Shown one piece after another: positions 11,938 through 25,019 of a DNA stretch of 64,000 nt. The DNA lies in assembly GCA_002315945.1 (NCBI GenBank), contig DCIJ01000078.1:1884-65883 (forward strand), read 5' to 3'. The first letter of the stretch is position 1, and each line of letters starts with the position of its first letter. Under the pieces are notes generated by a model that was given only the letters and a program-made list of their open reading frames with translations, did not search any database and was not told the origin of the DNA. Source of the stretch: Lachnospiraceae bacterium UBA1729 (GTDB lineage: Bacteria; Bacillota; Clostridia; Lachnospirales; Lachnospiraceae). Made by a program: the position numbers and the translations under genes.

Positions 11938-12005
11938 TGAACCCGGGGGACGGGGTTGGGGGGTCAAAAAAGTGAACCCGGGGGACGGGGTTCTAGGTTC
12001 ATTTT
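11938..12005. repeat. REP-like repeat family 1, two units in opposite orientation to 1-64
   Basis: TGAACCCGGGGGACGGGGTT at 11938-11957 and 11973-11993. Positions 11973-12005 are the exact reverse complement of 25-57 (33 nt). Confidence 0.9.
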
Positions 12006-12850
12006 GCTGAAAAAGATAATATGGTATACACAGTTGCGTCCCCGATGGCATTACCATAAGGATTCTCTAATTTACAGTATCCACCGCTTCTTTCTAAATC
12101 AAAGGATGGGGTGCAGTATACAACTTCAGCCATCACTGATTTGAAATTAATTTCATGTGTTACACGATCAACCTCAACTCTTAAATCAACACGCCTGTCT
12201 GCAATCTGCCCGCAATCATTTACGTTAGCCAGCAGGTTATGAAATACTGGGAAATCTCCCCGTAAAGTGTAAACATACACATCCAATGTATTATATGGAT
12301 TATTCCAGATATAAAGTGTCGCATCATCAAAATTAGTAGGCATCCCATTTGAAGCCAGTGTTCCAAGCAAGACCTCATAAGAATTTTGACATTTTCTTAC
12401 ATCTAATCCATAGGTTTTGTTGTAATCAATCGCTGTGCCCCCGGCATTGCTATATCCAGAAGGATATCTAATTGCACTTGCACTTTTACCTGCTGTAATA
12501 TTTGAAACAATTCTTTCAACAAAGTTCTCTGTATCGAGACCTGACCATCTGTTTGTCGTAAACTGCTCCACTTTAAATGTCTTTTTTTCTTTATATTTGT
12601 TCATAGCGACCGCTAAAATCGGATTTGTAAAATCATGAAATGAATATGGATCGTACATATTAATTGCAGTGGCATGTGCCAGTTCATCTTGAGAATTTTG
12701 TCCTAATTGTCCTACAGTTTCCGCTGCAAAAACCGTAATGGGTGCAAACAGAATCATATGCATGAAAGCTACTGCCACAACAAACCTCAACGTAGTAAAG
12801 ACTACGGTCCTTTTATTTTTTACCTGTCTTCCAATAATTGTGTATGCCAT
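11999..12850 (-). CDS. Hypothetical secreted or membrane-anchored protein
   Basis: 283-aa ORF with an N-terminal hydrophobic segment (VVAVAFMHMILFAPITVFAAE). I recognise no family. It is flanked on both sides by family-1 repeats, and its stop codon lies inside one. Confidence 0.55.
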   Translation of the reverse strand: MAYTIIGRQVKNKRTVVFTTLRFVVAVAFMHMILFAPITVFAAETVGQLGQNSQDELAHATAINMYDPYSFHDFTNPILAVAMNKYKEKKTFKVEQFTTNRWSGLDTENFVERIVSNITAGKSASAIRYPSGYSNAGGTAIDYNKTYGLDVRKCQNSYEVLLGTLASNGMPTNFDDATLYIWNNPYNTLDVYVYTLRGDFPVFHNLLANVNDCGQIADRRVDLRVEVDRVTHEINFKSVMAEVVYCTPSFDLERSGGYCKLENPYGNAIGDATVYTILSFSAK

Positions 12851-12965: not shown

Positions 12966-13040
12966 TGACCCCAGGGGACGGGGTTCTAGGGTCAAAAAAG
13001 TGAACCACTAACCCCGTCCCCCTGGTTCACCCTGGTTCAC
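12966..13040. repeat. REP-like repeat family 1, inverted pair plus 10-nt tandem tail
   Basis: CCAGGGGACGGGGTT (12970-12984) pairs with AACCCCGTCCCCCTGG (13010-13025). CCCTGGTTCA is then repeated twice. Confidence 0.85.
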
Positions 13041-14816: not shown

Positions 14817-15046
14817 ATTTTTCCTCCTCATGGTTTCTATCAACAAATACTTTTTAATTTTTGAAAAAAATAGTAATTTTTATATTACATGTAATATAAT
14901 CTAATAATAGCCTGTAAAAAATGGCATTTTTTAATTATTATATGTAAAAAAGTCGTCTGAACTAAATACTATGCGTTAAATATGCGTATTGAAAATATAT
15001 TCTAAAAAAAGTTCTAAATTTGAGTGATAATTTGGAGGATATTATT

Positions 15047-15859
15047 GTGAATGAAATTGTTCTCACCGATCTGGATGGGGTTTTTGTGGAACAGATAGAT
15101 CTGCTTACCGCCAATGTCCCCTTTTTTCATGTGGACAGAATTGCCAAAACCAATGTACTAATCTATGTGTTGTCCGGGTGCATATATGTAACCGAGGAAG
15201 GAACTGACTATGCCATTAATCCTGGAGAAATGATTTTTTTAAAAAAGGGTACTCATCAATACGGTCACCGTCTTATCAAAGCGGAGACCTCCTGGATATA
15301 TGTGCACTTTCAAATTAATCAGATGGGAAATAGTGAAGCTTTCTCTGATACTTCTATTCAAAAGATTGTATTGCCCAAGAACATCAAGGAACTGGATAAA
15401 ACAGAGTTTCCTAAGGAGCTTAAGAATATTCTCAGGATTTCCAGTACCTCTAAGAAAATGAAGAACAGTCGTGTATCAACAGCTTTTCACAGATTTTTAT
15501 TAAATGTATATGATCAAAATGACACCGCTGCCAAGGATGGAATCACTGATCGTATTCTTAATTTTTTACAGGAACACATCCATGAAGACCTGTCTGCAGG
15601 CGATTTGGAAGATCATCTGCATCTGACATATAAATATCTTGTAAGAGTTTTTAAGAAGGATATCGGAATGGGGATAATGAAGTATCATAATATGCAAAGA
15701 ATATATGCTGCCGCCAGTGAACTTCGTTCAACCAGCAAATCTATATCTGAGGTCAGTGGGGAATTCGGCTTTGGCGACCCCCTGTATTTCAGCAAATGCT
15801 TCAAAAAACAGATGGCGATGTCCCCCAGAGAATATAGAAAAATTCAGTCGATATTTTGA
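15047..15859 (+). CDS. AraC family transcriptional regulator (cupin sensor plus HTH)
   Basis: C-terminal AraC HTH (SEVSGEFGFGDPLYFSKCFKKQMAMSPREYR). A GTG at 15047 lies 8 nt after GGAGG. The ORF-track start at 15020 is a TTG without an RBS. Confidence 0.8.
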   Translation: MNEIVLTDLDGVFVEQIDLLTANVPFFHVDRIAKTNVLIYVLSGCIYVTEEGTDYAINPGEMIFLKKGTHQYGHRLIKAETSWIYVHFQINQMGNSEAFSDTSIQKIVLPKNIKELDKTEFPKELKNILRISSTSKKMKNSRVSTAFHRFLLNVYDQNDTAAKDGITDRILNFLQEHIHEDLSAGDLEDHLHLTYKYLVRVFKKDIGMGIMKYHNMQRIYAAASELRSTSKSISEVSGEFGFGDPLYFSKCFKKQMAMSPREYRKIQSIF

Positions 15860-15988
15860 ACCAGGGGGACGGGGTTCTAGGGTCATTTTTGTGAGCTAGG
15901 GGGACGGGGTTGGGGGTTCATTTTTTGAAAAATGAACCCCCAACCCCGTCCCCCTAGCTCACCCTAGCTCACCCTAGCTCACTTTTGC
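15857..15988. repeat. REP-like family 1 cluster with a 27-bp perfect palindrome; probable bidirectional terminator
   Basis: GGGGGACGGGGTTGGGGGTTCATTTTT / AAAAATGAACCCCCAACCCCGTCCCCC (15898-15955). One extra unit at 15857-15877 and a 3x tandem ACCCTAGCTC. It lies between convergent genes. Confidence 0.85.
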
Positions 15989-21553: not shown

Positions 21554-21640
21554 ATTTTCTATCCGTCCCCCTGATTTTTCAGATACTACCATATAATTAT
21601 AAATTTTAAATAAAAAAACTTCAATATCCGAAAAGCGGAC

Positions 21641-21722: not shown

Positions 21723-21773
21723 TGTTATTAGGGCATTTGGGGGTGTTATTAGGGCATTTTGGGGTGTTGTTTG
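21723..21773 (+). repeat. Two and a half tandem 21-nt repeats in the degV 5' leader
   Basis: TGTTATTAGGGCATTTGGGGG, then TGTTATTAGGGCATTTTGGGG, then TGTTGTTTG. Confidence 0.8.
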
Positions 21774-21804: not shown

Positions 21805-22638
21805 GTGAATTACAAAATAGTATCAGATTCATCAGCAAATCTTTTTAAACTGAAGGAGCTTGATTTCCAGTCAGTTCCTCTTCATATCATAGTGGCGGAC
21901 AAAGATTTCGAGGATAGTGAGACATTGGATCTCAATGAAATGCAAAATAGTCTGTCTTCCCATAACGGAAAATCATCCACCTCCTGCCCCAGTTCGCAGG
22001 AGTGGATGGATGCTTTTGGCAACGCTGATGTGATCTTCTGTGTTACCCTCACAAGTGGCCTGTCCGGTGCATACAACTCTGCCAAAATTGCGGCATCCAT
22101 GTATGAGTCAGATTATCCTGGACGCAAGGTTTATGTTATAGACTCTTTATCTACCGGACCTGAAATGGTTCTGTTAATTCACAAAATCGCAGAACTCATC
22201 CAGTCTGGCACCGAGAGTGATGTAATTTTTAACAAAGTCTGTGAATATAAAAAAAGAACCCACCTGTATTTTGAACTTTCTTCTCTGGATAACTTTGTAA
22301 AAAACGGAAGAATCAATTCTGTAGTTGCAAAAAGTATTGGAATGCTTGGAATAAAAATAATTGGGACAGCCAGCGATGAGGGAACCCTCAAGCCTGTCGA
22401 CAAGTGCCGTGGAAGCAGGCGTGGCTACTGCTGCCTTATTTCTCATATGAAAAAATGTGGATACTCTGATGGCCAGGTTATTATTTCTCATACAAATAAC
22501 CCCTCCGGTGCAGAAGAAATGAATGAACTTATTCAATCCAATTTTAATTATCACGATGCAGTGATTATGGAAAATCGTGGACTGTGCAGTTACTATGCAG
22601 AGCCTGGTTCTGTGCTAATTGGCTTCGAAGTGAGCTAG
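21805..22638 (+). CDS. degV: DegV family fatty-acid-binding protein
   Basis: 277 aa. IVSDSSANL start and overall DegV layout. GTG start 5 nt after GGAGGG. The stop codon lies inside a family-1 repeat. Confidence 0.85.
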   Translation: MNYKIVSDSSANLFKLKELDFQSVPLHIIVADKDFEDSETLDLNEMQNSLSSHNGKSSTSCPSSQEWMDAFGNADVIFCVTLTSGLSGAYNSAKIAASMYESDYPGRKVYVIDSLSTGPEMVLLIHKIAELIQSGTESDVIFNKVCEYKKRTHLYFELSSLDNFVKNGRINSVVAKSIGMLGIKIIGTASDEGTLKPVDKCRGSRRGYCCLISHMKKCGYSDGQVIISHTNNPSGAEEMNELIQSNFNYHDAVIMENRGLCSYYAEPGSVLIGFEVS

Positions 22639-22712
22639 GGGTGAGCTAGGGGGACGAGGTTGGGGGTTCATTTTTGCAAAAAATGAACCCCCAACCCCGT
22701 CCCCCTAGCTCA
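22630..22712. repeat. REP-like family 1 palindrome; probable bidirectional terminator
   Basis: TGAGCTAGGGGGACGAGGTTGGGGGTTCA (22642-22670) pairs with TGAACCCCCAACCCCGTCCCCCTAGCTCA (22684-22712). It is nearly identical to 15892-15960 and lies between convergent genes. Confidence 0.85.
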
Positions 22713-23451: not shown

Positions 23452-23488
23452 ATTCTATGTTTTTCATATTATGAATGGACGCTCTCCC

Positions 23489-23548
23489 CGTTGCAGAGTG
23501 ACACTCCTCGTTACAGAGGGACACTCCTCGTTGCAAAAGAACCGTCCC
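23489..23548. repeat. Repeat family 2: three tandem 20-nt units ending in GAACCGTCCC
   Basis: CGTTGCAGAGTGACACTCCT, CGTTACAGAGGGACACTCCT, CGTTGCAAAAGAACCGTCCC. Confidence 0.85.
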
Positions 23549-23551
23549 CAA

Positions 23552-24886: not shown

Positions 24887-24913
24887 TATATTAACTTCTC
24901 CCAAAACTTACTT

Positions 24914-25019
24914 CGTTGCAGAGGGACACTCCTCGTTACAGAGGGACACTCCTCATTACAGAGGGACACTCCTCGTTGCAAAAGAACCGTCCCCAACAGT
25001 GGACAAAAGAACCGTCCCC
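24914..25019. repeat. Repeat family 2: five tandem units, same orientation as 23489-23548
   Basis: CGTTGCAGAGGGACACTCCT, CGTTACAGAGGGACACTCCT, CATTACAGAGGGACACTCCT, CGTTGCAAAAGAACCGTCCC, then CAACAGTGGACAAAAGAACCGTCCCC. Confidence 0.85.

Follow-up and report, generated by a model that had tools for sequence, protein, structure and literature searches.

The repeats described here come closest to RAYT-like transposase systems of the TIRYT/TIRtron class (Di Nocera 2013; Quentin 2018, subclass 2.1), an assignment made by shared features rather than with the authors' own profiles. In the passages of Quentin et al. (2018; PMC6006769) considered here, TIRtron/TIRYT elements are equated with TnpA-REP subclass 2.1, and genes of this subclass are described as having no REP-like sequences nearby. 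The corresponding passages of Di Nocera, De Gregorio & Rocco (2013; PMC3733652) report TIRtron repeats that are moderately abundant in S. maltophilia and K. versatilis and occur as singles, dimers and clusters. In the REP/BIME and REPIN systems with their RAYT proteins (Nunvar 2010, PMC2817692; Bertels & Rainey 2011, PMC3116915; structure 4ER8), a single-copy Y1 gene lies between repeats of its own, every paralog has a separate family, and copies lie outside genes, at gene ends. These REP/BIME and REPIN traits recur in the family analysed in this study. It was found in a window of Lachnospiraceae bacterium UBA1729, that is, the whole stretch of 64,000 nucleotides that was analysed, and its members are probably non-autonomous copies of a RAYT/TIRYT-type element, as judged from sequence comparison.

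The repeat unit is 29 nt long, TGA(A/G)C(C/T)NN-GGGGACGGGGTT-NNNGG(G/T)TCA, and most units carry a T-run, usually T4-5, directly after it. Each unit contains three G-runs, which might form a G-quadruplex. A search with the core GAACCCCGTCCCCC, allowing up to 2 mismatches, gave 11 matches in the window (0.11 expected; none of 100 shuffles reached 11). All 11 fall at exactly the five loci listed by the first-pass annotation, which had also correctly described direct pairs and inverted pairs in a background of ~40% GC, the value found across the whole window. Direct pairs lie at 1-57 and 11938-12001, inverted pairs at 12966-13029 and 22642-22712, and a triplet, direct then inverted, at 15857-15961. 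The first pair is on the minus strand. It begins with a partial unit (1-22, the 3' part), of which the full copy, C101:1877-1905, starts 6 nt before the window, and continues with the unit at 29-57 (TGAACCCGGGGGACGGGGTTCTAGGTTCA as read on the minus strand), whose TCA (55-57) serves as stop codon for the minus-strand ORF 55-1191. The second pair consists of plus-strand units at 11938-11966 and 11973-12001 separated by AAAAAG, and the terminal TCA of the latter (11999-12001) is the stop codon of the minus-strand ORF 11999-12850. In the inverted pair at 12966-12994 (plus) and 13001-13029 (minus), with a 6-nt spacer, the partners are different at 7 of the 8 variable positions and therefore look like independent neighbours. 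The 10-nt tail behind them (CCCTGGTTCA, 13030-13039) repeats once more the outermost 10 nt of the unit before it.

The triplet starts with a plus-strand unit at 15857-15885, the first TGA of which (15857-15859) is the stop codon of an AraC-type gene (15020-15859). A palindromic doublet of a TGAGCT-armed subfamily follows, with its left half on the plus strand (15892-15920), a 12-nt spacer (TTTTTTGAAAAA, 15921-15932) that forms the loop and inner stem of the hairpin, and a minus-strand right half (15933-15961) that shows no difference from the left one at any of the 8 variable positions; the outer end of the unit is then repeated in two further 10-nt copies (CCCTAGCTCA) at 15962-15981. At the last site, the gene at 21805-22638 runs into an 11-nt tail (TGAGCTAGGGG, 22631-22641), likewise an extra copy of the unit outer end, and stops at its TAG. 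The palindromic doublet behind it has a plus-strand left half (22642-22670), a 13-nt spacer (TTTTTGCAAAAAA, 22671-22683) identical to what the two inner ends of the transposase cassette would give if fused, and a minus-strand right half (22684-22712). This doublet is the near-identical inverted copy previously placed at 22647-22707; it extends over 22642-22712 and has one mismatch in the core of its left half (GACGAGG). Tandem Repeats Finder confirmed three tails of the 10-nt tandem type reported earlier, CCCTAGCTCA x3.1 at 15952-15982, CCCTGGTTCA x2.1 at 13020-13040 and GTGAGCTAGGG x2.1 at 22630-22652. The supposed solo half-site near 21563 exists as an 11-nt match (CCGTCCCCCTG, 21563-21573), which is missed by the unit profile and is either a relic or a chance match, the two being indistinguishable. 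A core match in a cobD-like gene (C22:2457) was set aside as a probable chance match.

Inverted pairs of the window fold into near-perfect hairpins of ~33 pairs (-67 to -92 kcal/mol; z -10 to -12 against shuffles). The pairing extends beyond the ~27-bp stems of the first-pass annotation, since the T and A runs pair too. Single units and direct pairs reached z -1.3 to -1.6, which is no better than shuffled sequence, and the arm complementarity of single units is inconsistent between genomes. The single unit as a hairpin was therefore rejected, and the idea that units occur singly as self-hairpins is also at odds with the window, which holds no lone unit. The GTAG tag is absent from the unit, and CGTC (on the complement strand) sits in the middle of the core and not at the unit end. 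A search of the whole window against Rfam at gathering thresholds gave no match. In the literature searched, the core sequence matched only eukaryotic Sp1- or G4-type items, no paper joined Butyrivibrio or Lachnospiraceae to REP, RAYT or TIRYT, and no description of the repeat family was found, in line with the initial impression that it is unlike the catalogued families.

The genome is a 70%-complete MAG with 69 units at 35 sites on 12 of its 110 contigs, and assembly and binning could have distorted both these copy numbers and the regional clustering. Two of the contig ends, as well as one run of N, lie inside units. The 12-nt core is near-invariant among the units of the genome and the arms are variable. 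The dispersed forms are single 29-nt units, head-to-tail pairs and, most prominently, inverted doublets in which the T-run ends point towards each other.

The first-pass annotation had proposed to look for a cognate RAYT gene, and such a gene is located ~1 kb upstream of the window start (C101:98-871). It encodes a Y1/HUH transposase of 257 aa, and this paralog is present in one copy in the 70%-complete genome. The protein matches Pfam Y1_Tnp (PF01797) with 47.7 bits (cut-off 23) and NCBIfam REP_Tyr_transpos (NF047646) with 71 bits, which is under the curated cut-off of 80; the score against the NCBIfam IS200 model is 18 bits. In an alignment to E. coli TnpA-REP (4ER8) the HUH motif falls on H60-I61-H62, and the tyrosine is Y119 within YIHNNP. 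Both are kept in 13 homologs, and a WSS motif is conserved among the homologs as well. A C-terminal HTH is indicated by weak matches at residues 224-256 (E about 1e-3, below cut-offs). The cassette (C101:1-932) consists of a unit on the G-rich strand, TTTTT, a promoter/leader, the transposase gene and a unit on the C-rich strand, so that inverted units enclose the gene, and its TGA stop codon forms the first three bases of the flanking unit. This unit-gene-unit arrangement with inverted flanking units was observed in 6 of 6 orthologs, and the genes flanking the six cassettes are unrelated to one another. The second RAYT paralog of the genome (contig C25) lies between copies of another dispersed repeat, in which GGGGACGG is likewise present. 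Flanks of the GGGGAC type are found beside more distant Lachnospiraceae paralogs, and G051 has GGGGACAG.

Measured against the passages of PMC3733652 and PMC6006769 on TIRtron/TIRYT elements, the likeness comprises a RAYT-like Y1 protein with HUH and tyrosine motifs, a putative serine motif after the tyrosine (the conserved WSS here) and a long C-terminal extension with a putative HTH (weak matches here), a gene located between inverted repeats instead of GTAG-tagged hairpins, and dispersed, moderately abundant copies as singles, dimers and groups. The TIRtron motif GGGGWSAS given there is matched by GGGGACGG at 7 of 8 positions and by GGGGACAG of G051 at all 8. The units act more like TIRYT terminal inverted repeats than like classical GTAG-tagged REPs.

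Neighbouring inverted units are arranged as '><' in 58 cases versus 4 as '<>', and '><' is the orientation of the cassette. The usual doublet spacer, TTTTT plus GCAAAAAA, corresponds to the innermost nucleotides of the cassette, 5 from one side and 8 from the other, brought together. From their sequences, inverted doublets look like internally deleted cassette copies. Partners with a 12-13-nt spacer differ at 0-1 of the 8 variable positions, against 4.1 in random pairs, the TGAGCT-armed doublet is present in 7 copies, and two copies of an 84-nt doublet (spacer 26 nt) lie in opposite orientations; this supports the idea that doublets may be copied as whole entities. A unit-bounded ORF of 747 bp is 97.5% identical in two species and has unrelated flanks, which, like the unrelated neighbours of the six cassettes, points to movement from one genomic context to another. 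No direct repeats that would indicate a target-site duplication flank the doublets, and the lack of such a duplication is expected for Y1 enzymes. The relatives in the collection all belonged to other genera and none was usable for nucleotide synteny, looking up a neighbouring gene by exact protein match gave no result, no relative emerged when metagenomes were scanned with a neighbouring protein, and a comparison of 40 kb of NK4A179 with 44 congeners yielded short syntenic pieces with one-sided boundaries only. None of this gave a clean pair of filled and empty orthologous sites, so that transposition is inferred rather than directly seen.

Beyond this genome, the unit was found in Butyrivibrio, Pseudobutyrivibrio, Oribacterium, Lachnospiraceae bacterium NK4A179 and [Clostridium] aminophilum. 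Together with its spread over 12 contigs, this bears out a dispersed REP/MITE-like family and not a local duplication. In a survey of 301 Lachnospiraceae genera, one genome per genus, orthologs of the transposase with at least 59% identity were present only in G000, G005, G069, G134, G239 and G261, and at least 20 units only in G000 (62), G005 (69), G069 (81), G134 (40), G261 (69) and G251 (27). Five of the six ortholog-bearing genomes thus hold 40-81 units (2x2 table of ortholog and at least 20 units 5/1/1/294; Fisher p = 2e-9, a statistic that ignores the relatedness of the genomes). The two exceptions are G239, which has the cassette without dispersed copies, and G251, in which no transposase was seen in a 70%-complete assembly. 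A few genomes contain 1-6 units without an ortholog, and within the genus of G005 both ortholog and repeat were found in G005 only. In G261 a variant core, GGGACGGAGGTT, is present in the cassette and in the 69 dispersed copies. A plasmid or phage vector was considered and rejected, as the top matches reach only 32% identity for plasmids and 27% for phages; a doublet was found in 1 of 2.9 million viral contigs.

All copies had been described as intergenic and located at gene 3' ends. Most sites are indeed at 3' ends, but in the window the terminal TGA/TCA is itself part of a gene, as the stop codon, at three positions (55-57, 11999-12001 and 15857-15859), and across the genome there are also units in divergent or 5' regions, as well as a doublet that is read through in frame. 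Of 540 unit ends, 54 provide, with their terminal TGA, the stop codon for an ORF of 100 codons or more, and in the two remaining frames only 15 ORFs of this size run into a unit; TGA accounts for 15% of the stop codons in the genome. Two proteins that stop at a unit TGA are full length when compared with curated models, and in one related genome that lacks the unit the gene likewise ends in ...AAATGA. Unit ends thus coincide with TGA stop codons of intact genes far above chance, possibly a new trait of such elements. It is tempting to speculate, although only tentatively, that the Y1/TIRYT family targets A-rich TGA, in practice the TGA stops of genes, and that unit pairs could carry passenger genes between genomes. 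With such targeting, a doublet would be deposited exactly at the end of an ORF and leave the protein unaltered. If true, this would represent a stop-codon-directed mobile 3'-end element.

The position at gene ends could alternatively mean that the units are primarily host regulatory, as factor-independent terminators or mRNA 3'-end stabilisers conserved for this function, and that the transposase gene merely happens to use them as its terminators. Besides the preference for 3' ends, the stable folds of the doublets and the T-runs of the units agree with this, as does the finding that 22 of 32 gene 3' ends facing a cluster lie within 13 nt of it. However, terminators do not need an invariant, non-palindromic 12-nt core common to 69 sites and several genera, and single units and direct pairs fold no better than shuffles. 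A T-run follows the 3' arm of the doublet at some sites only, single units are mixed in orientation relative to transcription, a terminator consensus scan picked up one unit, and the genome has ordinary terminators too, for example at 20787-20754. A terminator role of the units is plausible, but only plausible, because doublets lack a consistent T-run and the orientation of single units is mixed. A primarily regulatory origin would also leave the link to one transposase clade and the core variant of G261 unexplained, and we consider it unlikely.

Less likely still, and in our view improbable, is that the core is the site of a host DNA-binding protein or an uptake-type signal spread by recombination. 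An invariant 12-mer in variable surroundings and inverted pairs behind genes would fit, since Neisseria DUS and Pasteurellaceae USS also form inverted pairs behind genes, and the associated protein has an HTH domain, albeit with weak matches. Yet copies are counted in tens and not in the thousand or more typical of uptake signals, they are clustered on a few contigs, their occurrence is patchy even inside one genus, and the repeat tracks an HUH/Y1 nuclease gene with intact catalytic motifs. Local duplication, or an artefact from assembling or binning the MAG, to which the restriction to 12 contigs and the contig ends and N run inside units might point, is refuted for practical purposes by the presence of units in many independent assemblies, including cultured isolates, and in five other sampled genera, with a reversed-pattern control giving only 0-1 matches.

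For a RAYT/TIRYT-type element, the following course of events may be envisaged. The single-copy transposase would recognise the invariant 12-nt core and, in the manner of IS200/IS605 and E. coli TnpA-REP enzymes, cut and rejoin single-stranded DNA at the TGA...TCA ends, so that units and doublets could spread in trans. New copies would favour A-rich TGA sites, very often the TGA stop codons of genes, and also the neighbourhood of the transposase gene. Once placed, the doublet hairpins would probably act as mRNA 3'-end structures, either as barriers to transcription or as exonuclease blocks.

With REPINs the family shares the inverted doublet with a short spacer and a long hairpin that replicates as one unit, which for the present doublets is deduced from their sequences. 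Unlike REP/RAYT systems, the family has no GTAG or terminal CGTC tag, its copies are in the tens and not in the hundreds, and its protein has an extra HTH domain (weak matches) and an NCBIfam RAYT score below the cut-off. The classical REP is a 20-40-nt unit that is itself an imperfect palindrome, which the present units are not. The doublets, with terminal inverted repeats and the appearance of a parent with its interior deleted, agree in these features, though not in a target-site duplication, with a MITE derived from an IS. With IS200/IS605 elements such as IS608 and ISDra2 the family shares the HUH/Y1-type catalytic domain and, with IS608, which inserts 3' of TTAC, the apparent insertion beside a short specific sequence without target duplication. 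Unlike in IS200/IS605, the transposase is not multiplied with the element and the ends are inverted repeats instead of two different subterminal hairpins, and the IS200 score is low; in lacking a significant hairpin, single units also differ from the studied substrates of RAYT and IS200/IS605 enzymes. BOX, RUP, SPRITE, Bcr1, EFAR and Correia/NEMIS are, as here, small intergenic repeats with inverted ends and possible transcript hairpins; DDE-type IS transposases are regarded as the enzymes behind these MITEs of Firmicutes and Neisseria, whose insertion duplicates the target. We recognise no sequence similarity to any of them.

In summary, the family is a new example, from rumen Lachnospiraceae, of a known kind of bacterial miniature mobile DNA. 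Rumen Lachnospiraceae are named in neither the text of PMC3733652 nor that of PMC6006769 as far as considered here, and the exact overlap with TGA stops, the palindromic doublets resembling deleted cassettes and the 10-nt end duplications are likewise unreported in their passages on these elements. The palindromic doublets break short-read assemblies of rumen MAGs and could serve as strain-typing markers. A definite biochemical substrate is provided by the invariant core of 12 nt, together with the fixed ends (TGA...TCA) and, in one genus, a core variant that cassette and dispersed copies share. The coincidence with TGA stops suggests a simple target rule, which could explain the position of the repeats at gene ends. 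An HTH-bearing subclass that was reported without nearby REPs in the passages on subclass 2.1 is now tentatively linked to abundant dispersed repeats, and RAYT/TIRYT biology gains Gram-positive, anaerobic and culturable hosts, among them NK4A179 and isolates of Butyrivibrio and Oribacterium, all from the Hungate collection.

The 29-nt G/C-rich repeats are genuine and form a dispersed family associated with a transposase. Alignment of all genome copies gave the consensus TGA(A/G)C(C/T)NN-GGGGACGGGGTT-NNNGG(G/T)TCA. Copies hardly vary in the 12-nt core or in the terminal TGA and TCA, the inner arm bases are variable, and a run of 4-5 T usually lies 3' of the unit. The first-pass annotation had described palindromic repeats sharing a core at five loci of the window, and all 11 occurrences of GAACCCCGTCCCCC (≤2 mismatches; 0.11 expected from shuffling) indeed fall inside these loci. 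They comprise direct pairs at 1-57 and 11938-12001, an inverted pair with a 6-nt spacer at 12966-13029, a unit triplet at 15857-15961 and a palindromic doublet, i.e., two inverted units with a short spacer, at 22642-22712. The ~40% GC background holds across the whole window, and the tandem tails proved to be 10- to 11-nt, perfect tandem copies of a unit's outermost bases. Inverted pairs with 12-13-nt spacers form hairpins of ~33 pairs (-67 to -92 kcal/mol, z -10 to -12), whereas for direct pairs, folding is not stronger than in shuffled sequence. Therefore, the palindrome is the doublet and not the single unit, for which a self-hairpin had been claimed.

A search for a cognate RAYT had been proposed for these repeats. 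We observed a RAYT-like Y1 transposase gene bracketed by units ~1 kb upstream of the window (C101:98-871, same contig), one of two Y1_Tnp genes in the source genome. Its 257-aa product matches Pfam Y1_Tnp. Against the NCBIfam models for RAYT and IS200 it reaches 71 bits (RAYT cut-off 80) and 18 bits, respectively, and residues 224-256 give weak HTH matches. In an alignment to E. coli TnpA-REP (4ER8), H60-I61-H62 correspond to the HUH motif and Y119, within YIHNNP, to the tyrosine; these residues and a WSS motif are kept in 13 Lachnospiraceae homologs. The contig begins within a G-rich-strand unit; TTTTT comes next, and 72 nt later the transposase gene starts. The TGA that ends this gene doubles as the opening triplet of a C-rich-strand unit, with another C-rich-strand unit behind it. 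The 3' end of contig C63 likewise lies inside a unit, and at C68:41744-41792 the middle of a doublet is replaced by a run of N; palindromic doublets seem to cause breaks or gaps in the assembly.

The transposase and the units co-occur across genomes. Searching one genome for each of 301 Lachnospiraceae genera, orthologs (≥59% identity, E ≤1e-100) were found in six (G000, the source genome, G005, G069, G134, G239 and G261), the next-best homologs being ≤52% identical. Units were counted in the same genera with a loose pattern accepting lineage-specific arms and a core variant. Counts of at least 20 were reached only in G000 (62), G005 (69), G069 (81), G134 (40), G261 (69) and G251 (27); the remaining genomes had ≤4 each and the reversed-pattern control gave 0-1. 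The resulting 2x2 table (5/1/1/294) has a Fisher p of 2e-9, uncorrected for relatedness. In G251, a 70%-complete, very fragmented MAG, no ortholog was seen. G239 carries the gene and no dispersed copies, its sole pattern match being a unit flanking that gene. The outer arms of this cassette, the unit-gene-unit arrangement, are degenerate (C32:8209-9110), and the cassette may lack activity or be a recent arrival. The genus of G005 (Lachnospiraceae bacterium NK4A179) was covered with 45 species, of which only G005 combines the ortholog with many units; six others hold 1-6 units. In the NK4A179 ortholog (C20:48400-49161), an in-frame TGA lies immediately ahead of the position matching query residue 3, which may reflect an alternative start or N-terminal damage; the genome holds 69 units nevertheless. 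All six orthologs share the cassette layout, the genes flanking the six cassettes are mutually unrelated, and in four of the six the downstream unit starts with the stop TGA. The variant core GGGACGGAGGTT of G261 occurs in its cassette and in its dispersed copies alike. Distant paralogs in other genera are bracketed by other inverted repeats, also with GGGGAC.

The other Y1 gene of the source genome (C25:253-1101, 282 aa) is RAYT-like, 38% identical to the first and not flanked by 29-nt units. Instead, it is bracketed by inverted copies of CTCGTYGCAAAAGAACCGTCCCC plus 20-nt tandem units (locus C25:1-1101). This second family consists of 20-nt tandem units (CTCCTCGTTGCAGAGGGACA) ending in CTCGTYGCAAAAGAACCGTCCCC, with 16 terminal copies on 12 contigs; two of its arrays lie in the window, at ~23484-23550 and 24913-25010, and flank one gene. 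Since both Y1 genes are bracketed by different dispersed repeats, each paralog has its own dispersed repeat, as is also described for RAYT systems. A 21-nt direct repeat at 21723-21768 (TGTTATTAGGGCATTTGGGGG x2.2, 96% matches), just upstream of a gene starting at 21805, is unrelated to the 29-nt unit family.

Across the source assembly (2.03 Mb, 110 contigs, ~70% complete), in which the window corresponds to C101:1884-65883, a profile search detected 69 units, which group into 35 clusters and occupy 12 contigs. Scanning prokaryotes with the exact pattern, one genome for each species, gave at least 117 matching stretches; those among the matches listed all came from rumen and gut Lachnospiraceae, with cultured Butyrivibrio, Pseudobutyrivibrio and Oribacterium strains, NK4A179 and [Clostridium] aminophilum among the carriers. 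With units on 12 contigs and in other genera, the family is therefore dispersed, as had been proposed, and is not a local duplication. No Rfam family matched the repeat. The 12 contigs holding the clusters compare with 26.6 expected (minimum 18 in 5000 simulations). On C101, all six clusters lie ≤25 kb from the transposase gene and none in the other 49 kb, and in G069 the copies listed are spaced ~1-2 kb apart around the transposase gene. This clustering suggests local spreading, with MAG binning as a caveat.

In all DNA compared, adjacent inverted units are arranged '><', with T-run ends inward as in the cassette, 58 times versus four times '<>' (p = 3e-13). With a 12-13-nt spacer, the two partners show 0-1 differences over eight variable positions, random pairs 4.1; partners with a 6-nt spacer or with longer ones in most cases do not appear related. 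The most frequent spacer, TTTTTGCAAAAAA, reads as the 5 nt that follow the left cassette unit fused to the 8 nt that precede the right unit. A TGAGCT-armed doublet occurs seven times, and an 84-nt doublet with a 26-nt internal palindrome is present in two copies of opposite orientation ~1 kb apart (C68:48783-49908). Orientation, partner similarity, spacer and repeated doublets are what would be expected if the doublet propagates whole. This likewise fits the REPIN idea of a doublet propagated as one entity, and doublet and cassette resemble the classical relation of a MITE to its parent element. The two 84-nt doublets bracket a single ~315-codon PAP2-like gene, which terminates at the TGA of the second doublet. 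At C82:24091-24160, outside the window, another palindromic doublet carries GGA and not TGA at both outer ends; it is read through in frame by a 322-codon frame comprising a lipoprotein-like glycosidase-type gene and a short, unrelated C-terminal segment.

A unit, an ORF of ~200 codons and two inverted units together make up a 747-bp segment that NK4A179 (contig C24; L151:17451-18195) shares at 97.5% identity with its congener G320 (L154:1384-2130). The flanks are unrelated, and other homologous stretches found in this genus are mostly 65-90% identical. The ORF appears to be a passenger gene that moved as a cassette bounded by units. No clean filled-versus-empty orthologous site was obtained, including between NK4A179 and its congeners; transposition and trans-mobilisation, and likewise any RNA role of the units, are inferred. 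Stopping RNA polymerase or 3' exonucleases is a proposed role for REPs, and doublet hairpins directly behind ORFs could act by analogy. The T-run 3' of the doublet is missing at many doublets, single units have no consistent orientation relative to transcription, and the window also holds ordinary terminators. A 3'-end role of doublets is plausible and secondary.

Among described kinds, the TIRtron/TIRYT class comes closest. It comprises RAYT-like genes bracketed by inverted repeats with GGGGWSAS in common, with moderately abundant dispersed copies in dimers and clusters in a few species (PMC3733652). According to Quentin et al., TIRYTs are TnpA-REP subclass 2.1, long proteins with a C-terminal HTH, and REP-like sequences near these genes were not found (PMC6006769). 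Bertels et al. note Group 1 RAYTs in Clostridia, with only weak repeat association (PMC5581495). Lachnospiraceae are not named in the text of these three papers, and our literature search found no paper on the 29-nt unit family.

Stop-codon placement was analyzed for 270 units with enough flanking DNA and ORFs of ≥100 codons. The terminal TGA is the ORF stop codon at 30 left and 24 right ends (neighbouring offsets, 0-7 each), and nine and six ORFs enter the unit in the other two frames (54 vs 15, expected 1:2, p = 3e-14). TGA accounts for 15% of stop codons in the source genome. Biotin synthase and an M20 amidohydrolase ending at a unit TGA are full length against curated models. In one cross-species comparison, the gene end ...AAAAAGAAATGA is common to a unit-bearing and a unit-free genome, and the unit starts at that TGA; such comparisons recovered no empty site with its right-hand boundary. 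IS608 inserts 3' of TTAC. By analogy, the stop-codon coincidence suggests that the units may insert at A-rich TGA sequences, and their stop-codon-precise placement may be the one new trait of this family.
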